A stretch of 64,000 bases of DNA from Akkermansia muciniphila (lineage in GTDB: Bacteria > Bacillota > Clostridia > Oscillospirales > CAG-272). Shown one piece after another: positions 7,177 through 60,762 of this stretch. Each line of letters opens with the position of its first letter. The first letter of the stretch is position 1. The stretch is from contig CAVDSZ010000008.1 of the NCBI GenBank assembly GCA_963611795.1, positions 24,715 through 88,714 of the forward strand, given 5' to 3'. The notes beneath the pieces are model-generated. The model ran no database searches and was not told where the DNA came from. It worked only from the letters and a program-made list of their open reading frames with translations. The translations under genes were made by a program, and so were the position numbers.

Positions 7177-7361
7177 ACGGATCTTTTTGCGGGACCCCCT
7201 ATTTGATCTAAAGGGGGCGCGTTGATCTAAAGAGGGTCTCGCCCCCTCCCCAAAAACTTTGAAACATTTTTGGGCTCTCGCAGACGGTCATCACCCCCGC
7301 GAAATCGAACCCGAAAGAAAAAGCGATTGCGTTCCGCAAGGGGCGCCCCCCGTCGCCCGCA

Positions 7362-7499
7362 CCTTTTAAAGTTCAGGCAACCGACACGGCTTTTCGTTTC
7401 CCTTTGAAAAGCCGTGTCGGTTGCCCATTATATCATTTTGGGGGCTAGTCTCCGCCCTTATCTGCGCCACTGCGCCAGCTATTGCTCAACTTTTGTACC
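7362..7499 (-). repeat. MITE-like element copy A3 (5' module plus hairpin module only)
   Basis: Minus-strand read: GGTACAAAAGTTGAGCAATAGCTGGCGCA..GCGCAGATAAGGGCGGAGACTAGCCCCC..TAATG, then a perfect 20-bp hairpin at 7376-7425 (GGCAACCGACACGGCTTTTC...GAAAAGCCGTGTCGGTTGCC). Matches modules at 57996-58030, 7926-7973, 37079-37122 and 50977-51025. Confidence 0.8.
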
Positions 7500-7669
7500 C
7501 GAGACAAGCGTGAGGAGCCGGAGCGAACTTTTTCATTGATCGGAGAAACCATTCGTTCGCCCTAGCATTTTCGCATAGCGAAAATGCACCATGCCTTAGT
7601 GGTAAGAGAAATCATTACGTTTTGAAGCCCCGTTAAACGTTGCGCTAGCTATTGTTTCACTTGTGTTGA
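7500..7669 (-). repeat. MITE-like element copy A2 (contains double-hairpin core copy 2 at 7522-7586)
   Basis: One end is CGAGACAAGCGTGAGGAG (7500-7517, + strand); the other end is degenerate (CTTGTGTTGA, 7660-7669). Core, read on the minus strand: CATTTTCGCTATGCGAAAATG..GGGCGAACGAATGGTTTCTCCGATCAA..GTTCGCT. Confidence 0.75.
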
Positions 7670-7973
7670 CGAGACAAGAGAGAAGGGAGGGAGAAACCGC
7701 GTTCACACGAACGTCGACGACTAGCGAACCATATAACTTGGTCGGAGAAACCGTTTGTTCGCCCACACATTTCCGCCATGCGGAAATGATTCCGCTTTTT
7801 GAAAGAGGAGTTCTTTACGGTGTACGGTAGAGCGTGCGAACGCGGTTAAAGCCCCCTCGTCTCTTAAAGTAAAGGCAACCGACAAAGCTCCTCATCTATC
7901 CGATGAAAAGTCAATATCGGTTGCCATTAAATTGTTTTGGGGGGCTTGATCTCCGCCCTTATCTCTTGTCTCG
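7670..7973 (-). repeat. MITE-like element copy A1 (304 bp, long form, perfect 12-bp TIRs)
   Basis: CGAGACAAGAGA at 7670-7681 is the exact reverse complement of TCTCTTGTCTCG at 7962-7973. Hairpin 7874-7925. Outer stem 7695-7709 / 7833-7847. Core copy 1 at 7723-7788. No ORF. Confidence 0.85.
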
Positions 7974-9380
7974 CAGCCCTTTGGGGTAATGGTTCTTCGC
8001 AACCCCTCCGACGACCTTGATGCCGCCGACGGGCGCACCCGCCACCGTCACGACCGCCCACCCGTCCGCAAGCGCGCACGGGAATGTCTCCCCCGCGAGA
8101 TACGCGGCAAGCGCCGCGTCCCCCGGCATGAAATCGAGATGCCTTTCAAAATACTCGCCGTAAGCCGAGAAGAAGAAATGTGCCGGGCAAAGCCGCCCTT
8201 TCTCCACCGTACCGGCGTTCACGCCGCGGGCATAGGTAATGCTTTTCGGCGTCGGCACCGCCCCGTCAAGGAGCGAAATGCTCCCTTTGAAAACAACCGG
8301 CTCCGGGAGACGCGCGCCGTCGATACCGGCGGCGGCGAGAAAGGCTTCCCACGCCGCCCGCTCTTCCCGTGAGAGCGGTACCGTATCCGGCTCCGTGCGG
8401 GTCTTGCCCTTGTTTTTGTCCCTGCCTCGATTGGCATTCACATCGTACACGGAAACGGGCGACGCCGCCTCCGCGCGGCGGAACCGACACATGAACTGCC
8501 CCTCCCCCGGGGCGATATGCGGATAGGCGCGGCGGGACAGGCGCCCGACCTCCCGCCCGATGTCGGTGTCCTCGGGGACAATTCCCGAGACGGTCATCGA
8601 CAGCACGGCGTCGGACACTTCTTCCAAAACAAAATCCGGGCGTGCGCGTAAGAACCACAGCACATTCTGCTCGTTTTCCTCAGGCGAGAACGTGCAGGTC
8701 GAATAGACCAGCCGCCCCCCGGGACGCACGGTGTCCGCCCCCGCGAGCAAGATTTCCCGCTGTCTCGCGGCGCACATCGTCACATTCTCGGGGCTCCATT
8801 CCGCGACGGCGATCTCCTCACGGCGGAACATTCCCTCCCCGGAGCAGGGCGCGTCAATCACGACGGCGTCGAAAAAGCCGGGATAGGTCGCGGCAAGCGC
8901 CGGCGCGTCCGTGCGCGTCACGACCGCCGAGCGCACACCCATGCGCTCGAGGTTTCCGGCAAGCGTCACACACCGATTCGGTACATATTCATTGGAGACG
9001 AGCAGACCCCCGTCACCGATGCGGTTCGCAATCTGGGTCGACTTCCCGCCCGGGGCGGCGCAGAGATCCAGCACCCGTTCCCCCGCCCGGATGTCGGCGC
9101 ACAGCACCGGCAGCATCGCGGATGGCTCCTGCATATAATACGCGCCCGCATGGTGGAGCGGGTCACCCCCGACGGGCACCGTGTCCGTGCGGTAAAGTGC
9201 GTCCTTTGCAAAAGGCGTCGGTGTGACCGCCGCCCCGAGCAGCTCCCCGAGCCGTTCCGCCGTCATCTTCCGCCCCGTGTGGAGCGCACGCGCGGGGCGC
9301 TCGTCGTACGCCGCGAGGAACGCGGGATAATCCCCGACGAGCAGGTCGCGCATTCGCGCGAGAAACGCCTCCGGTAACAT
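7959..9380 (-). CDS. NOL1/NOP2/Sun-family rRNA m5C methyltransferase with C-terminal PUA-like extension (RsmF-like)
   Basis: SAM-binding block VLDLCAAPGGKSTQIA, DAPCSGEGMFRR and catalytic YSTCTFSPEENE. The last 5 codons and the stop lie inside repeat A1. Confidence 0.85.
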   Translation of the reverse strand: MLPEAFLARMRDLLVGDYPAFLAAYDERPARALHTGRKMTAERLGELLGAAVTPTPFAKDALYRTDTVPVGGDPLHHAGAYYMQEPSAMLPVLCADIRAGERVLDLCAAPGGKSTQIANRIGDGGLLVSNEYVPNRCVTLAGNLERMGVRSAVVTRTDAPALAATYPGFFDAVVIDAPCSGEGMFRREEIAVAEWSPENVTMCAARQREILLAGADTVRPGGRLVYSTCTFSPEENEQNVLWFLRARPDFVLEEVSDAVLSMTVSGIVPEDTDIGREVGRLSRRAYPHIAPGEGQFMCRFRRAEAASPVSVYDVNANRGRDKNKGKTRTEPDTVPLSREERAAWEAFLAAAGIDGARLPEPVVFKGSISLLDGAVPTPKSITYARGVNAGTVEKGRLCPAHFFFSAYGEYFERHLDFMPGDAALAAYLAGETFPCALADGWAVVTVAGAPVGGIKVVGGVAKNHYPKGLRDKR

Positions 9381-26756: not shown

Positions 26757-26929
26757 ATAAGAAACGACAATATGCGGGGGAGCACCTTTTTCAGGAAAAG
26801 GTGCTCCCCCGCGCTCCCTCTCCAAAACCTTTTTGAAGAATTGCTACTGCTCGCGCAAGACAAAAAAGGCGGAGCGCACCTGAGGAGCCGTCCTCGCTCT
26901 CTGTGCGTTTCACACCGTCACCGCCGCAC

Positions 26930-27089
26930 GCCGAAGAAGTTTCTACATTATCACGACGTCACGTTGTAGGGGCGACCAATGGTCGCCCGCAAGCCGAAAA
27001 AGTTTCAACAATATCGCGGACGTCACATTTCGGATGCGCCCTCGACCGTCCGCGAACAAAAGACAAAATGGTTCGGGCAGATAACCCCC
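26930..27089 (+). repeat. Degenerate repeat region (63-bp-period direct repeat plus hairpins related to the MITE-like family)
   Basis: GCCGAAGAAGTTTCTACATTATCACGACGTCACGTT (26930-26965) versus GCCGAAAAAGTTTCAACAATATCGCGGACGTCACATT (26993-27029). GCGAAC..GTTCG stem followed by CAGATAACCCCC at 27052-27089. Confidence 0.45.
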
Positions 27090-27119: not shown

Positions 27120-27148
27120 TTGACAAGCGTCGGGGTGGGTGCTATAAT
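27120..27148 (+). promoter_or_regulatory. Sigma-A promoter of rplJ-rplL
   Basis: TTGACA (27120-27125), 17-nt spacer ending in TGC, TATAAT (27143-27148). Confidence 0.75.
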
Positions 27149-27296
27149 ATCGTCGTTATCCTGAGACAGCAGGTTCACGGTAAAAGCTTTGCTTTCCTGC
27201 CGAGGTGAGACAGACAGTACATTTTTTATGTGTTTTTTGTCCTTTCTCGGCTTGCCGTGAAAGGATTATTTTTTTATCACAAACGGAGGAAATGAA
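27149..27296 (+). ncRNA. Ribosomal protein L10 (rplJ) autoregulatory leader, putative
   Basis: About 148-nt structured 5' UTR between a strong promoter and rplJ, ending in a T-run (ACATTTTTTATG). Called from position and known Firmicute L10-leader biology, not from a model match. Confidence 0.5.
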
Positions 27297-35373: not shown

Positions 35374-35519
35374 CACGCAGGGCGAAAAACGCGGGAGAAA
35401 CGTCGTCTGCCCCGGCGGACGCGGCGCCCCTCTTTCGTCCGCATAGCAACGGAGCGGAGCCTGTTTTAAAGGCTCCGCTCCGCGTTTTATGAAATGTTTG
35501 ATGAGTCCCTTCGGCGTTG

Positions 35520-36726: not shown

Positions 36727-37014
36727 TCAAGGAAAAGTATTTTTTCGTGCACTGAGTGAAATATGTTTACTTACGGGAGACGTGTCGGTGCATTTGGTCA
36801 CACCCGCCAGATAATCAATCGATACTGCATACAGTGCCGCCAATTCGATAAATTGATGCATCAGCAATTCCTGTTTGCCTGTTTCATACCGCACATATTG
36901 CTGCCGTAAAATCCCAAAATGCTCCGCGACCTGTGTCTGTGTCAGGTCGGCATCTTCGCGCAGATCCCGTAATCTTTTGTAGAGATTGTCTATCGCGACA
37001 TTTCGTCCCTGACA
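36727..37014 (-). pseudogene. XRE-family HTH gene lacking a usable start codon (5'-truncated)
   Basis: Minus-strand frame reads ..NLYKRLRDLREDADLTQTQVAEHFGILRQQYVRYETGKQELLMHQFIELAALYAVSIDYLAGV..*. There is no in-frame ATG, GTG or TTG before the HTH. The frame runs directly into repeat 37026-37122. Confidence 0.5.
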
Positions 37015-37025
37015 TTTTAAAAAAT

Positions 37026-37122
37026 AAAGGCAACCGACTCTGCTTTCTCTTTCGAGTTGTATAGCAAAATCGGTTGCCCATTACTTTATTTCGGGGGCGT
37101 GATCTCCCCCTTATCTCTTGTC
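37026..37122 (-). repeat. MITE-like family, hairpin/terminator module only (groEL 3' copy)
   Basis: Minus strand directly after the groEL TAA: GACAAGAGATAAGGGGGAGATCACGCCCCCGAAATAAAGTAATG, then hairpin 37029-37078 (GGCAACCGA..TCGGTTGCC), then TTTATTTTTT. About 90% identical to 50927-51025. Confidence 0.85.
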
Positions 37123-38754
<1,632 letters not shown>

Positions 38755-43479: not shown

Positions 43480-43526
43480 AAAACCGCGAGGAGCCGAGAA
43501 ATTCGGCTCCTCCCTGCTTTTATTTC
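43480..43526. terminator. Bidirectional terminator
   Basis: Stem GAGGAGCCG / CGGCTCCTC, with A-rich sequence on the left and CTGCTTTTATTT on the right, between convergent genes. Confidence 0.65.
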
Positions 43527-44613: not shown

Positions 44614-44691
<78 letters not shown>

Positions 44692-44885
44692 GATAGGAAC
44701 CTTTCTTCTAAAGGCTTATATAGGATACCACGCGAATGCTCATTTGTCAAGCATTATTTTCAAATTTGTTCCGTCACATGAGTAGGATATGCACCCCGGC
44801 GGTGCAATATGCAGGAACCCGCGCCGAAACGGCGCGGGTTCCTGTCAAGGAGCAACGCGTTCTTCTGTCAAGAGGCAATGATTGT

Positions 44886-48471: not shown

Positions 48472-48504
48472 CCCCGTGCGAAGCACAAAAGACATCCAAC
48501 CGCA

Positions 48505-48541
48505 AAGAGGAGCCGATTTTCTCGGCTCCTCTTCGTTTTAT
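48505..48541. terminator. Bidirectional terminator (adh / GGDEF gene)
   Basis: Stem AAGAGGAGCCG / CGGCTCCTCTT, then CGTTTTATC. Nearly identical to 50395-50430. Confidence 0.75.
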
Positions 48542-50374: not shown

Positions 50375-50394
50375 TGCAAGACTCTATAAATATA

Positions 50395-50430
50395 AAGAGG
50401 AGCTGATTTTCTCGGCTCCTCTTCGTATTT
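50395..50430 (+). terminator. Rho-independent terminator after XRE gene
   Basis: Stem AAGAGGAGCTG / CGGCTCCTCTT, then CGTATTT. Confidence 0.7.
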
Positions 50431-50477
50431 GTCATATACCGTTGATTCCCCCGGCAACCGCTTGAAAGCAACGAAAA

Positions 50478-50591
50478 ACCGCTCTGCCGAGATTGATAAA
50501 AAAGGGGGCAACTACTTCGTGCCCCCATATATTTTTTACCCGCGCTCTTCGCGCCCCGTGCGCCCGCTAATGCCTGATCTGTGTACCCGAG
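50478..50591 (-). repeat. 114-bp repeat unit, copy 1 (hairpin GGGGGCA..TGCCCCC)
   Basis: About 85% identical to 50707-50822 by eye. Contains GGGGGCAACTACTTCGTGCCCCC, TATATTTTTTACCC and CGCCCGCTAATGCCTGA. Confidence 0.8.
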
Positions 50592-50706
50592 GTGAGCAGA
50601 GGGTGATGAAGAAACCGCGAGAGCGTTCTCGTCGCCGTACTCCGTACGACAGAGAGCGGTATCGCGGTTAGCGGGTAAACGCGTCTCCCTTGAATAGTAA
50701 CGGCAA

Positions 50707-50822
50707 ACCGTTCTGCCAAGAATAAGGAAAACAGGGGGGCAACTGCTTCGTGCCCCCGTATATTTTTTACCCATGTTCTTCGCGCCCCGTACGCCCGCTA
50801 ATGCCTGACCTGTGTGCCCGAG
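50707..50822 (-). repeat. 116-bp repeat unit, copy 2
   Basis: Direct repeat of 50478-50591 at a 229-bp period. Abuts the TIR of element 50819-51025. Confidence 0.8.
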
Positions 50823-51025
50823 ACAAGAGAGAAGGGAGGGAGAAACCGCGTTCACACAAACGTCGACGCACTTTGTGCGGTAGAGCGTGCGAACGCGGTT
50901 AAAGCCCCCGTTCTTCTTAAAGTATAGGCAACCGACTCTGCTTTCTAATTCGAGTTGTTCAGCAAAATCGGTTGCCCATTACTTTATTTCGGGGGCTTGG
51001 TCTCCGCCCTTATCTCTTTGTCTCG
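50819..51025 (-). repeat. MITE-like element, short form (207 bp) downstream of and overlapping the tyrS stop
   Basis: CGAGACAAGAGA (50819-50830) and TCTCTTTGTCTCG (51013-51025) form the TIRs. Outer stem AACCGCGTTCACAC/GTGCGAACGCGGTT encloses only a short GCAC-AAA-GTGC hairpin. Hairpin 50927-50976. Confidence 0.85.
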
Positions 51026-52233
51026 AACTTGCGGTAGGTCTTTTTGCCACGCCGCACCAAAAGCCCCTCGGCGACCTCTTCTGCCGTGTACGTCTTGCGG
51101 AAGTCTGTCACCTTTTCGCCGTTGACCGTCACGCCGCCCTGTTCGACCGCGCGCCGCGCCTCGGAGCGCGAGGGCACCATGCCGCCCGTGACCATGAGCG
51201 AGAGGAGTGAAACCCGACCGTCCTCAAAAGCATCATCCCCGACGACGGTCGTCGGTGCATCGGCGTCCGACCCGCCGGAGAAGAGCGCACGCGATGCGTC
51301 GAGCGCCGCTTTTGCCTCTGCTGCGCCGTGGACCATTTTCGTCAGTTCATAGGCGAGAATCTCTTTCGCCTCATTGATGCGTCCGTCCTCCCAGGTTGCC
51401 ATTTCGTCAATCTGTTCAAGCGGCAGGAAGGTCAGCATACGGACGCACTTTATCACGTCCGCATCGTCGACGTTGCGCCAGTACTGGAAGAAGTCGTACG
51501 GCGAAGTCTTCTTCGGGTCGAGCCACACGGCATTGCCCGCCGTTTTGCCCATTTTCTTGCCCTGCGAGTCGGTCAGGAGCGTAATGGTCATCGCATAGGC
51601 ATCCTTGCCGAGTTTGCGACGAATGAGTTCCGTCCCGCCCAGCATATTCGACCACTGGTCGTCACCGCCAAACTGCATATTGCACCCGTACTTCTGGAAC
51701 ATATAGTAGAAGTCATACGACTGCATAATCATGTAGTTGAATTCGAGGAACGAAAGCCCCTTCTCCATGCGCTGTTTGTAGCACTCGGCGCGGAGCATAT
51801 TATTGACCGAGAAGCAGGCACCCACCTCACGGAGCAGCTCCACATAGTTGAGCGAAAGGAGCCAGTCGGCGTTGTTCAGCATCATTGCCTTGCCCTCGCC
51901 GAACTCGATGAATTTCTCCATCTGACGGCGGAAGCAGTCCGCGTTATGCGCGATATCCTCTTTTGTGAGCATCTTACGCATATCGGTGCGCCCTGAGGGG
52001 TCGCCAATCATGGTCGTACCGCCGCCAATCAGCGCGATCGGACGGTTCCCCGCCATTTGCAGACGCTTCATCAGCGTCAGCGCCATGAAATGCCCGGCAG
52101 TCAAACTGTCCGCGGTGCAGTCAAAGCCGATGTAGAACGTCGCCTTGCCCTCGTTGATCATCTCACGGATATGGTCTTCGTCCGTGACCTGCGCGATCAG
52201 CCCGCGCGCTACCAGTTCTTCGTATAATTTCAT
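51010..52233 (-). CDS. tyrS: Tyrosyl-tRNA synthetase
   Basis: FDCTADSLTAGH (HIGH-class), KMGKT (KMSKS), and a C-terminal S4 domain. The final ETKR* codons lie inside the repeat. Confidence 0.95.
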   Translation of the reverse strand: MKLYEELVARGLIAQVTDEDHIREMINEGKATFYIGFDCTADSLTAGHFMALTLMKRLQMAGNRPIALIGGGTTMIGDPSGRTDMRKMLTKEDIAHNADCFRRQMEKFIEFGEGKAMMLNNADWLLSLNYVELLREVGACFSVNNMLRAECYKQRMEKGLSFLEFNYMIMQSYDFYYMFQKYGCNMQFGGDDQWSNMLGGTELIRRKLGKDAYAMTITLLTDSQGKKMGKTAGNAVWLDPKKTSPYDFFQYWRNVDDADVIKCVRMLTFLPLEQIDEMATWEDGRINEAKEILAYELTKMVHGAAEAKAALDASRALFSGGSDADAPTTVVGDDAFEDGRVSLLSLMVTGGMVPSRSEARRAVEQGGVTVNGEKVTDFRKTYTAEEVAEGLLVRRGKKTYRKFETKR

Positions 52234-57389: not shown

Positions 57390-57683
57390 ATGAAGGATTT
57401 TGTCAAGAAGTACCGCTTCATTCTGATGATTGTACTGTTTGCACAGGCGGTCACGCTGTTTTTTCTGTTCCTGTCGCAGGTAGGCAGACGGCGCAGTCTG
57501 GCGGACGCATTCCTTGCCCTGTCGGCGAGCGACACCATGGTGACGTTCCTTCTGTACCTCGGCTATCTCGGGGAGAAACGGGAGAAAAAGGCGCGCACGG
57601 AGACGCGCGAGCAGATGCGGGAGGATCCGGACGGATTCGAGATTCCGCTCGATGATACGGCGAGAGCCCGTGACTTCCGATAA
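57390..57683 (+). CDS. Small membrane protein, unknown function (97 aa)
   Basis: Two predicted TM helices, then a charged tail. ATG preceded by GGGAGAG. Followed directly by a repeat element. Confidence 0.5.
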   Translation: MKDFVKKYRFILMIVLFAQAVTLFFLFLSQVGRRRSLADAFLALSASDTMVTFLLYLGYLGEKREKKARTETREQMREDPDGFEIPLDDTARARDFR

Positions 57684-57995
57684 CGAGACAAGTGTGAGAA
57701 GCGCAGAACAAGCGCCCTGAATAAGGGCAAATAAAGGGCAACCGATATTGACTGTTCTTTGTACGAAAGAAAGCCGTGTCGGTTGCCTATTCTTTAAGAA
57801 CCGACGGGCGCTTTAGTCCCGAAAACGGTCTCTGCCGTACAACGTAAAGCAACCCTCATTCAAAAAGCGGGTGCATTTCCGCTATGCGGAAATGTGTGAG
57901 CGAACAAACGGTTTCCCCGAACAAATCATAATGTTCGCTGGTATGTGCGACGAGCCCCGTTTTCGGGACTTCTGCATCTTCTCACGCTTGTCTCA
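57684..57995 (+). repeat. MITE-like element, full-length long form (312 bp), + orientation
   Basis: Ends CGAGACAAGTGTGAGAA (57684-57700) and TTCTCACGCTTGTCTCA (57979-57995) match as inverted repeats at 15/17. Hairpin 57737-57787. Outer stem 57815-57828 / 57957-57970. Core copy 3 at 57874-57939. Confidence 0.85.
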
Positions 57996-58134
57996 GGGTA
58001 CAAAAGTTGAGCAATAGCTGGCGCACAGATATAAAAAGTAAAGGTATTTTCGCGTCAGCGAAAATACATCAGGCAAACAAACGGTGTCTCAGACCAAAGA
58101 AGAACGTTTGCCGTGGCTGGCGCAGATAAGGGCG
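57996..58134 (+). repeat. MITE-like element, partial second copy (contains core copy 4 at 58045-58112)
   Basis: GGTACAAAAGTTGAGCAATAGCTGGCGCA (matches 7468-7499 reverse complement), then core 4, then GCTGGCGCAGATAAGGGCGG. Similarity ends after that. Confidence 0.75.
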
Positions 58135-60673: not shown

Positions 60674-60762
60674 TGGTACCGATGACCGGGCTCGAACCGG
60701 TACGGGAGGTAAGTCCCATCGGATTTTAAGTCCGAGGCGTCTGCCAATTCCGCCACATCGGC
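60674..60762 (-). tRNA. tRNA-Leu (anticodon UAA), class II with long variable arm
   Basis: Minus strand: GCCGATGTGGCGGAATTGGCAGACGCCTCGGACTTAAAATCCGATGGGACTTACCTCCCGTACCGGTTCGAGCCCGGTCATCGGTACCA (89 nt, CCA encoded). Confidence 0.92.

Follow-up and report, generated by a model that had tools for sequence, protein, structure and literature searches.

The pneumococcal BOX repeat has the form boxA-(boxB)n-boxC, in which the terminal modules pair with each other and boxB folds independently and occurs zero, one, two or more times (PMC3049150). Module number differs between strains through recombination, and the pneumococcal repeats, which cluster, nest and are predicted to fold in transcripts, show a strand bias of only ~61% (PMC3049150). 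SPRITE is a terminator-like hairpin repeat enriched near the 3′ ends of coding sequences, possibly as a co-opted terminator (PMC3049150). REP, BIME and REPIN sequences are high-copy extragenic palindromes of conserved structure that form mosaic clusters at gene 3′ ends (PMC3184786), and their persistence is lineage-specific (PMC3184786; see also PMC3116915). Further, the ERIC hairpin, when co-transcribed, alters mRNA stability via RNase E in one orientation (PMC3184786; PMC3049150), and Correia (NEMIS) elements are targets of RNase III (PMC3049150).

Here, we analysed a 64,000-nt stretch of bacterial DNA (the window), in which a preliminary description had aligned four copies of a ~65-nt double hairpin. 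We found all four cores with the letters it gave, at 57874-57939 (+), 58045-58112 (+), 7723-7788 (-) and 7522-7586 (-), together with the three compensatory changes that it had pointed out (C1:G to T:A, C6:G to T:A, and G:C to A:T in hairpin 2). The core is no self-contained RNA; it belongs to an optional insertion module of ~100 nt (a ~35-nt A-rich leader plus the ~65-nt core) of a larger repeat unit. The family resembles repeats of the BOX, SPRITE and BIME type and is not a new stand-alone RNA gene. Overall, the reading that we favour, with somewhat better than even confidence, is that the double hairpin is the core of a module in a lineage-specific family of modular interspersed repeats in uncultured human-gut Clostridia ('Eubacteriales').

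Anatomy of the repeat units

The host unit is ~207 nt long and consists of an outer stem P1 (20-24 bp), a terminator-like arm A (GGCAACCGA...TCGGTTGCC) and an arm B (15-20 bp), with a conserved tail of ~30 nt on its 3′ side. Three sequence isoforms (A, C and D) share one fold, and the predicted nested host folds have z-scores of -10.6 to -12.7. Elements fall into length classes of ~207, 307 and 412 nt, which correspond to zero, one and two inserts. Insert sites were defined by aligning empty with filled elements, and inserts were found, in one orientation, only at a small set of fixed positions: in the M1 loop, at the tip of arm B, at the arm B/P1 junction, after the tail and after an ordinary terminator module. 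The four cores of the window represent three subfamilies, each with its own leader and insertion site. Locus D, which is flanked by co-directional genes, carries two of the cores and is laid out as follows.

57685-57708 (+): P1 5′ strand of a D-isoform host, starting 1 nt after the TAA (57681-57683) of a 97-aa ORF (57390-57683)
57737-57787 (+): arm A hairpin GGCAACCGA...TCGGTTGCC, terminator-like
57815-57828 (+): arm B 5′ strand AGTCCCGAAAACGG, partner of 57957-57970
57843-57873 (+): type I insert leader CGTAAAGCAACCCTCATTCAAAAAGCGGGTG, within the arm B apical loop
57874-57939 (+): core copy 3, type I; hairpin 1 CATTTCCGC/GCGGAAATG, hairpin 2 GCGAAC/GTTCGC, conserved loop AAACGGTTTCCCCGAACAA
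57957-57970 (+): arm B 3′ strand
57971-57994 (+): P1 3′ strand
57997-58025 (+): conserved tail GGTACAAAAGTTGAGCAATAGCTGGCGCA, 100% identical to 7471-7499 (-)
58026-58044 (+): type II insert leader CAGATATAAAAAGTAAAGG
58045-58112 (+): core copy 4, type II; TATTTTCGC/GCGAAAATA and GGCAAAC/GTTTGCC

At this locus, an outer arm-A stem formed by GCGCCC (from 57712) and GGGCGC (to 57811) encloses the arm A hairpin. The tail ends in GCTGGCGCA, which occurs a second time at 58116-58124, beyond the type II insert. A TTGAGC...TATAAA pair with 15-nt spacing, picked out by eye as an own promoter for type II cores, was rejected, as the scan for σ70-type promoters called none at locus D, which holds core 3 and core 4, the latter being the only type II core in the window. 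The other two cores lie at locus A, which is flanked by convergent genes.

7950-7972 (-): P1 5′ strand GAGACAAGAGATAAGGGCGGAGA of an A-isoform host, whose TAA (7961-7959) is the stop codon of an RsmF-like gene (7959-9380)
7874-7925 (-): arm A hairpin
7789-7847 (-): arm B 5′ strand (7833-7847) and type I leader (7789-7820)
7723-7788 (-): core copy 1, type I, in the arm B apical loop
7671-7709 (-): arm B 3′ strand (7695-7709) and P1 3′ strand (7671-7694)
7587-7670 (-): tail variant (7641-7670), then a leader of the copy-2 type (7587-7623)
7522-7586 (-): core copy 2, copy-2 type, at the junction of arm B and the P1 3′ strand
within 7356-7517 (-): remnant of the P1 3′ strand (7501-7517) and tail (7471-7499)
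within 7356-7517 (-): terminal half unit, M1 and arm A hairpin (7376-7425)

The segment 7587-7670 (-) is the remnant of a second unit, the 5′ part of which is intact in the orthologous locus L007. The sole σ70-type promoter call at locus A was on the opposite strand, and the element strand had none. Units without a core were found at three other places in the window.

50820-51024 (-): locus C, complete A-isoform host element of 205 nt, no core
50463-50816 (-): locus C, C-isoform units in tandem, a complete unit (50589-50790) and a 5′ half (50463-50559)
37007-37123 (-): locus B, half unit of P1 5′ strand/M1, arm A hairpin and TTTATTTTTT, directly 3′ of the groEL stop codon
26774-26850 (+): terminator module T2 with the tail ...CCAAAACCTTTTTGAAGA...GCTCGCGCAAG, no type II core

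The tyrS gene (51010-52233) ends within the complete locus C element, which supplies its TAA (51012-51010) as well as the codons for the final residues ETKR. The half unit at locus B is probably the intrinsic terminator of groEL. The T2 module of the window represents an empty site, because this module bears a type II core in other genomes. Arm A has a T-rich tail in terminal copies at other loci and an interrupted tail, TTTACTTTAAG, in the internal copies of loci A and D; a terminator scan of these two loci did not call arm A as a whole. REP-like GTAG palindromes (GTAGGGGCGACCNNNGGTCGCCC) were observed as a separate module in the same intergenic regions, at 26966-26988 in the window and at 12 loci.

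Conservation and covariation of the stems

The hairpin-1 pattern ATTTYCGC-N3-5-GCGRAAAT matched four times in the window versus 0.00 expected, the loop pattern RAAYGGTNTCNCNGANCAA matched four times versus 0.38 expected, and a profile built from 47 copies recovered exactly the four cores. Both hairpins are predicted in each of the four copies, with z-scores of -2.0 to -3.9. The core starts with C/TATTT, is made up of two unlike hairpins without a 5′ GTAG, and has no T tract on the sense strand of its hairpins. That it belongs to no named RNA family, as had been suggested, agrees with the Rfam search, which at gathering thresholds returned only two tRNAs and an L10 leader for the whole window; a scan at E<=10 gave zero matches at locus D and five at locus A, all far below gathering scores.

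Covariation of the core was studied in an alignment (A1) of 46 distinct copies from related genomes. Stem cells were paired in 98.3%, compared with 28-51% when the partner was slid by 1-3 columns, and both-sided changes were counted in 40 cells versus 13.4 ± 2.6 after shuffling, a number that none of 500 shuffles reached. However, only 4 pair positions carried a both-sided change versus 3.6 in the shuffles (250 of 500); one of these depends on a single sequence, and the changes are concentrated at three. The three main covarying pairs were seen in at least six different combinations. The covariation of the core is thus real, yet few positions carry it and it largely separates subfamilies. One-sided changes on the sense strand comprised 25 G.U cells versus 5 A.C cells, and a candidate CGG/CCG mini-stem inside the hairpin-2 loop was 95% paired with zero both-sided changes. 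The proposal of selection for a fold of one strand, be it RNA or ssDNA, and not for coding was supported by the 46 copies, in which stems stay paired and loop letters vary, and is also backed by the one-sided stem changes, which are mostly G.U on the sense strand. The same copies bear out the conservation of the 5′ half of the hairpin-2 loop.

The host unit covaries far more strongly than the core. Both sides changed in 34 of the 62 host pairs, compared with 18.4 ± 2.3 after shuffling (0 of 500) and with 2-10 in slid controls, and 95.9% of the host stem cells were paired. One-sided changes amounted to 44 G.U versus 11 A.C cells, and the predicted fold was more stable for the sense than for the antisense strand in 15 of 18 elements. 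The P1 strands, inverted repeats of 20-24 nt that terminate the host unit, covary between isoforms. Moreover, the arm B/P1 junction of the host also contains the loop motif CGGTTTCTCC, which there pairs with GGAGA. Between genomes, the element stems and several linkers are 88-100% identical over short segments, compared with 78% for the syntenic flank of ~5.8 kb, and this stem conservation could point to selection for a host function and away from a selfish repeat.

Gene context and turnover between strains

The 5′ end of P1 lay -6 to +0 nt from, or overlapped, the stop codon of a long same-strand ORF in all 20 of 20 cases (~12 distinct genes), and at least four stand-alone cores were likewise situated 3′ of same-strand ORFs with high third-position GC. 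Genes preceding the elements include RsmF, TyrS and GroEL; the flanking genes are housekeeping genes (RsmF, GroEL, TyrS, PrfB) that share no functional theme. The TyrS protein ends in ...RKF-ETKR* or ...RKF-TR* with an element, and in ...RKFVLA* or ...RKFCLS* without one. Elements of either orientation were found on one and the same contig (the window, L025 and L009), and 15 of the 16 bins of the window have a negative GC skew, with no replication switch seen. The orientation of the elements tracks the upstream gene, not replication. Given that the units abut stop codons and are co-oriented with the gene, they most likely form, as judged from sequence, the 3′ UTR of its transcript, with folding on the sense strand.

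A search of 185,579 species genomes gave true matches in only two MAGs, and the genome matches are labelled 'bacterium W3P5.027' or 'uncultured Eubacteriales'. The first genome scan had yielded 16 loci, eight of which (L001, L002, L004, L008, L011, L013, L014 and L016) were discarded as chance matches to the loop pattern. Metagenomes contributed 22 loci, at least one of them labelled human gut, and the family was not found in the 21-kb loci of relatives whose TyrS is 81-87% identical. Orthologous loci differ between strains in isoform and module content, and isoform swaps and presence or absence at one gene were observed even between strains with 95-97% identical TyrS. The site of core 4 is filled in the window and empty in the orthologous L043 and L023, L037 has the slot-1 core and L034 lacks it, L045 has neither P1 nor core at locus D, and a deletion between two cores sets L006 apart from L037. 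The narrow lineage and the strong variability between strains point to an interspersed repeat and not to a conserved RNA gene. In addition, the elements break metagenome assemblies, because many matches sit at contig ends.

Neither a plasmid and phage search nor a search of viral contigs with the core pattern gave a match, so these collections provide no sign of a phage or plasmid origin. No target-site duplication flanks P1, and none is definable at any insert site. Type II inserts have GCTGGCGCA on both sides and the empty site has one diverged copy; this 9-mer also belongs to the repeated tail and the M1 junction, and the flanking repeats may be just components of the repeated units and no target duplication. 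A crude regular-expression motif scan for Y1-type or IS200-RAYT ORFs found none in 412 kb of the clade, a fraction of the genome.

Relation to known repeats and rival readings

If the elements are modular interspersed repeats, as we favour, the units would fold as part of the sense transcript of the upstream gene, where they would act in termination and in protection or processing of the mRNA 3′ end; the long helices would be plausible substrates of RNase III. Modules may be gained and lost by recombination between copies and by some non-autonomous insertion process. The core stems would be kept since the module must fold, either for the insertion process or to spare the host fold. Inserts at single-stranded sites would fold independently and leave the host helices unbroken, in a manner comparable to boxB inside the pneumococcal BOX.

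The likeness to BOX is one of anatomy, namely paired terminal modules around a self-folding internal module in variable number; a sequence relation is not expected, as the hosts differ in phylum-level lineage and in GC (~59% in the window). Unlike those of BOX, however, the present modules occupy several different sites and not one tandem array, the units are 100% co-oriented with the upstream gene and abut its stop codon, and the host unit has three covarying isoforms. The half units of M1 and arm A, such as the one after groEL (37007-37123), are similar to SPRITE, but SPRITE consists of one 18-bp duplex with a U-rich tract after it, whereas the terminator-like hairpin is here one arm of a three-helix unit with optional inserts. 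High copy number, mosaic clusters at gene 3′ ends, conserved structure and lineage specificity are shared with REP and BIME. REPs located within ~15 nt of a stop codon can reportedly lower translation of the upstream gene, as Liang, Rudd and Deutscher are said to have found (Mol Cell, 2015). In contrast to REP and REPIN sequences, the present cores have no 5′ GTAG and carry two unlike hairpins instead of an inverted doublet, no RAYT gene was found in 412 kb by the crude motif scan, and the GTAG palindromes coexist as a separate module.

Long inverted ends that form hairpins, here the P1 strands as terminal inverted repeats, are shared with the ERIC and Correia MITEs (~100-160 bp), and presence/absence polymorphism at orthologous sites was found as in a MITE. 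Size variants of ERIC carry internal insertions at fixed sites. ERIC and Correia elements, however, have TA target duplications and both orientations, whereas no duplication is definable here and the orientation is fixed; MITE ends keep one conserved sequence, whereas the terminal strands covary here between isoforms. Palindromes derived from IS200/IS605 do not fit: they call for an orientation tied to replication, through insertion into the lagging-strand template, and for ends free of terminal inverted repeats, and neither holds for this family. Integron attC sites, which have core sites of the form RYYYAAC...GTTRRRY and lie 3′ of cassette ORFs near intI, were rejected, as GTTCGCT and GTTTGCC do not fit GTTRRRY and the elements are flanked by housekeeping genes. 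Likeness to known repeats does not account for units that abut stop codons so strictly and are 100% co-oriented.

It has to be considered whether the hairpins are instead ssDNA recognition structures for a Y1 (HUH) transposase, with REP/REPIN-like or IS200/IS605-derived modules spreading as ssDNA. Structure is kept where sequence varies, G.T pairs are tolerated on one strand, modules are inserted always in one orientation, and the GTAG palindromes (GTAGGGGCGACCNNNGGTCGCCC) in the same intergenic regions mean that a RAYT-type system may exist in the lineage. This reading is nevertheless unlikely in our view, as orientation follows the upstream gene, with both orientations on one contig and no GC-skew switch in the window, the cores are without GTAG, the host element has long terminal inverted strands that IS200/IS605 ends lack, and the 412 kb held zero Y1-like ORFs, which is a weak motif test. 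Formed by hairpin 1 and the A-rich leader, an intrinsic terminator of the opposite strand would keep convergent or antisense transcription out of the upstream gene and account for the fixed orientation. It is consistent with the convergent genes around locus A and with the terminator scan, whose reverse-strand calls comprise core 4, with CTTTACTTTT after a 10-bp stem, and the type I cores, with TTTTTGAA after stems of 5-6 bp (the hairpin-1 3′ arm with the adjacent leader). But the leader of the copy-2 type has no T-rich reverse strand, the genes around locus D are co-directional, and hairpin 2 and its conserved loop are left unexplained, so that we regard such a terminator as improbable.

The core or the whole unit could also be a functional RNA domain with a specific role, to which we give a low probability, slightly below that of the transposase reading. 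In one variant, the C/U-rich loop GGUUUCUCCGA might pair with a Shine-Dalgarno-like GGAGA or with the element's own GGCGGAGA; in another, P1, by its place at the stop codon, might link the termination of translation with processing of the mRNA. The strong, sense-biased covariation, the loop 5′ half conserved in 46 copies, the position of P1, which begins at the stop codon in all 20 cases, the greater conservation of element stems than of flanking genes and the pairing of CGGTTTCTCC with GGAGA at the host arm B/P1 junction argue for such a role. Against it stand the many copies in a narrow lineage, the presence/absence and isoform swaps per gene between strains with TyrS 95-97% identical, the lack of the family in relatives at 81-87% TyrS identity, flanking genes without a functional theme, and promoter scans with no σ70-type match at locus D or on the element strand of locus A. 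Finally, the stems might be under no selection for folding, the few linked substitutions merely defining subfamilies of a palindromic repeat that was amplified recently. The copies are close relatives of one another and double changes fall at only 4 stem positions versus 3.6 after shuffling (250 of 500), yet this is highly improbable, given that the three main pairs occur in at least six combinations, that stems are 98% paired while loops vary freely, that one-sided changes are mostly G.U, and that the surrounding host element has 34 covarying pairs across three isoforms.

Two more far-reaching forms of the repeat reading are together unlikely as well: the ~207-nt unit with its accessory core may be a 3′-UTR RNA device, or the hairpin modules may spread via an RNA or transcription-oriented intermediate. 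Every terminating ribosome would have to open the base of P1, because P1 starts at the stop codon, and a device would thus tie translation to a structural switch governing mRNA lifetime, termination or processing by RNase III. A transcription-oriented intermediate would explain the 100% co-orientation with genes. We know of no description of either mechanism, the stop-codon-coupled switch or the transcription-oriented spread, for bacterial interspersed repeats.

Taken together, the modular family favoured here adds a well-delimited and strongly covarying repeat to the small set that is anatomically understood, namely BOX, SPRITE, BIME, ERIC and Correia. Its units rewrite the 3′ ends of housekeeping genes, down to the last codons of tyrS and rsmF, and the strain-level length polymorphisms that they cause are possible typing markers. 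Repeats of this class do not usually begin so strictly at a stop codon or keep so strictly to the direction of the upstream gene, and both features provide a testable handle on whether a repeat acts on translation termination or on mRNA 3′-end processing.

Core copies and paired changes in their stems

The preliminary description had reported four copies of a double-hairpin core of about 65 nt, and all four were found in the window at the positions and with the sequences described:

7522-7586, minus strand: core copy 2, copy-2 type
7723-7788, minus strand: core copy 1, type I
57874-57939, plus strand: core copy 3, type I
58045-58112, plus strand: core copy 4, type II

In the window, the hairpin-1 pattern ATTTYCGC-N3-5-GCGRAAAT was observed four times against 0.00 expected and the conserved loop pattern four times against 0.38 expected, and a search with a 47-copy profile returned exactly these four cores and no others. 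The two-hairpin fold was obtained for every window copy on either strand (z-scores about -2 to -4), and the three compensatory differences listed between the copies were all recovered. Rfam matches in the window were limited to a ribosomal protein L10 leader (27142-27279, 51.7 bits) and two tRNA genes (44618-44692 and 60677-60762).

A loop-motif scan of one genome per species gave 16 loci, eight of which were chance matches; all genuine loci belonged to just two MAGs, namely 7 contigs of 'Bacterium W3P5.027' (~92.5% identity to the window across a syntenic 7.8 kb) and an 'uncultured Eubacteriales' MAG of Hadza-sample origin (~78% identity, likewise syntenic). A metagenome scan yielded 22 loci; human gut was the label of at least one, and many came from the single sample ERZ1034755. 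No core was matched in the viral contigs scanned. The nhmmer collection comprised 50 cores, 47 of them distinct.

In core alignment A1 (46 distinct sequences), 98.3% of the stem cells were paired, compared with 28-51% when the partner was slid by 1-3 columns, and double-sided changes occupied 40 cells, compared with 13.4 +/- 2.6 in shuffles. Such changes fell at four pair positions only, which is not above shuffles, and one of the four had single-sequence support. One-sided changes were mostly G.U on the displayed strand (25 G.U vs 5 A.C). The letters of the hairpin-1 loop were free to vary; in hairpin 2, the loop was conserved over its 5' half. These results uphold the claim of stems kept by paired changes, though few variable positions underlie it, and the cautious interpretation attached to it, selection on a folded RNA or single-stranded DNA, is supported.

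Observed anatomy and covariation of the host unit

The cores are located within a larger repeat, the host unit, whose basic form of about 207 nt contains the following parts:

P1: outer stem, 20-24 bp
M1: linker
arm A: GGCAACCGA...TCGGTTGCC hairpin enclosed by an outer stem; the hairpin is preceded by an A-rich and followed by a T-rich run
arm B: 15-20 bp
tail: conserved, ~30 nt, 3' of the unit

Three sequence isoforms, A (GAGACAAGAGATAAGGGCGGAGA...), D (GAGACAAGTGTGAGAAGCGCAGAA...) and C (GAGGTAAGCATAGGGCGCGAAGAA...), share one common fold, and whole-unit RNA folds gave z-scores of -10.6 to -12.7. RNAalifold predicted 62 pairs on alignment A2 (11 insert-free units), in which 95.9% of the stem cells were paired and 34 pairs carried a double-sided change, compared with 18.4 +/- 2.3 in shuffles (0/500) and 2-10 in slid controls. 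Covariation is thus much stronger in the host unit than in the core. The core belongs to a repeat family as one of its modules and does not form an RNA gene of its own.

Elements fell into length classes of about 207, 307 and 412 nt, and alignment of empty with filled elements revealed that each step is one insert of ~100 nt, in which the 65-nt core is preceded by a leader of ~35 nt. The three core subfamilies each have their own leader and their own site:

type I, represented by window copies 1 and 3: arm B, in its apical loop
copy-2 type: where arm B joins the P1 3' strand
type II, represented by copy 4: in the M1 loop or behind the tail, or on its own behind an ordinary terminator module named 'T2'
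26774-26850: T2 module without core, an empty site

Every core was oriented as its host unit. No target-site duplication was definable at the insert sites; GCTGGCGCA stands on both flanks of type II inserts, and the same sequence belongs to the repeated tail/M1 junction. The T2 module recurs at L009, L015, L017, L018, L026, L029 and L030, with a hairpin stem whose sequence varies between loci and whose pairing is kept, then a conserved tail CCCGCACCCTCTTTCCAAAACCTTTTTGAAGA...GCTGGCGCA; type II cores occur downstream of such modules. The conserved hairpin-2 loop half GAACAAACGGTTTCTCC (e.g. 57900-57918) is closely like GAACGCGGTTTCTCC at the host arm B/P1 junction (e.g. 7687-7703, minus strand), which in A units pairs with M1 GGAGA. 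From this likeness, the core may be derived from the junction segment, or may compete with it for pairing.

Observed placement, strain variation and range

The 5' end of P1 lay 0-6 nt past, or overlapped, the stop codon of a same-strand long ORF in 20/20 units, representing ~12 different genes; those upstream of units in the window are the genes for an RsmF-like methyltransferase, TyrS and GroEL, plus a small ORF that follows prfB. Stand-alone type II cores, at least four of them, likewise lay downstream of same-strand ORFs with high third-position GC. Ordinary T2 terminators begin 13-30 nt past the stop, which makes such close abutment a particular property of P1. Where the stop codon lies within P1, the element encodes the C-terminal end of the protein: TyrS ends in ...RKF-ETKR* with the A isoform and ...RKF-TR* with the C isoform, and in ...RKFVLA* or ...RKFCLS* in relatives without the family. 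The last codons and stop are supplied by the repeat in tyrS (51001-51024) and rsmF (7950-7972), and RsmF ends in ...GLRDKR* in the window; in W3P5.027 conceptual translation places its end some 10 residues further on, with stop offsets of +11 and +41. Three TyrS homologues (P0002, P0060, P0092) carry internal duplications of about 25-100 residues, which look like assembly or gene-calling artefacts rather than real variants.

Units after rsmF, groEL and tyrS (loci A-C) lie on the minus strand and those at locus D, the site of copies 3 and 4, on the plus strand; GC skew was negative in 15/16 window bins, with no indication of a switch, and in L025 and in L009 units of opposite orientation occurred no more than a few kb apart. 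Unit orientation therefore tracks the gene, not replication. In sense-strand stems G.U was four to five times commoner than A.C, and the predicted fold was better on the sense than the antisense strand in 15/18 units. Taken together, these features indicate that what folds is probably the transcript, or at the least the sense strand.

Isoform and module content differed at orthologous loci of strains with TyrS 95-100% identical. Downstream of rsmF, the window carries both an A unit with core 1 and a remnant with core 2, and W3P5.027 a single D unit with a copy-2-type core; downstream of tyrS, the A unit of the window is followed by C units, and L043 and L044 have C units only. At locus D, core 4 is present in the window and the M1-loop core is missing; L043 and L023 show the reverse, and L045 has only a simple GGCAACCGA-type terminator. 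L006 and L037 differ by a deletion between two type II cores. These differences show recombination between copies and probably insertion as well. The C units downstream of tyrS (50463-50816) are in tandem, with a 231-nt period (repeat D4, 89% identity), and are fewer in L043 than in L044.

The family was not found in 21-kb loci of relatives with TyrS 81-87% identical, nor in plasmid and phage collections. Short stem and linker segments were 88-100% identical between genomes; the syntenic ~5.8-kb flank was 78% identical. Near-identical terminator-like hairpins of another family (AAAGAGGAGCCGAnnnnnTCGGCTCCTCTT; repeat-search entries D5, I3, I8 and I14) lie at 35451-35486, 43485-43520, 48504-48539 and 50394-50429.

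Known systems and alternative readings

REP-like palindromes with a 5' GTAG (GTAGGGGCGACCNNNGGTCGCCC) occur at 26966-26988 and in L003, L005, L015, L018, L021, L024, L026, L029, L030, L034, L035 and L037, frequently just 3' of type II cores and at times two or three consecutively, which suggests that, apart from the core family, the lineage has a system of the REP/RAYT type. That these palindromes coexist with the units in the same regions favours an alternative in which the hairpins act as single-stranded DNA serving a Y1 transposase, and this alternative remains, although unit orientation is not replication-linked. The apparent compensation might also be mere hitch-hiking of subfamily substitutions; the three main covarying pairs of the core were seen in at least six combinations and hence do not reflect one linked event, and this explanation likewise remains. 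Two further alternatives remain, that the cores are terminators acting on the reverse strand, and that a specific RNA function resides in the C/U-rich conserved loop or in P1 with its position at stop codons.

Of the systems described, pneumococcal BOX and SPRITE come closest (PMC3049150). BOX has terminal modules that pair and an internal, self-folding boxB that varies in number, with unequal crossover; SPRITE is terminator-like and enriched at coding-sequence 3' ends (PMC3049150). More distant is the likeness to co-transcribed elements that influence mRNA stability, namely BIME/REP, ERIC and Correia (PMC3184786). The unusual features of the present family are its strict start at stop codons and strict co-orientation. 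From the likeness to BOX and SPRITE, we read the core as a boxB-like accessory module of a new, lineage-specific, modular 3'-UTR repeat family. The means of module spread is one that we infer, and the units would be transcribed and would act in termination, or in 3'-end protection and processing.
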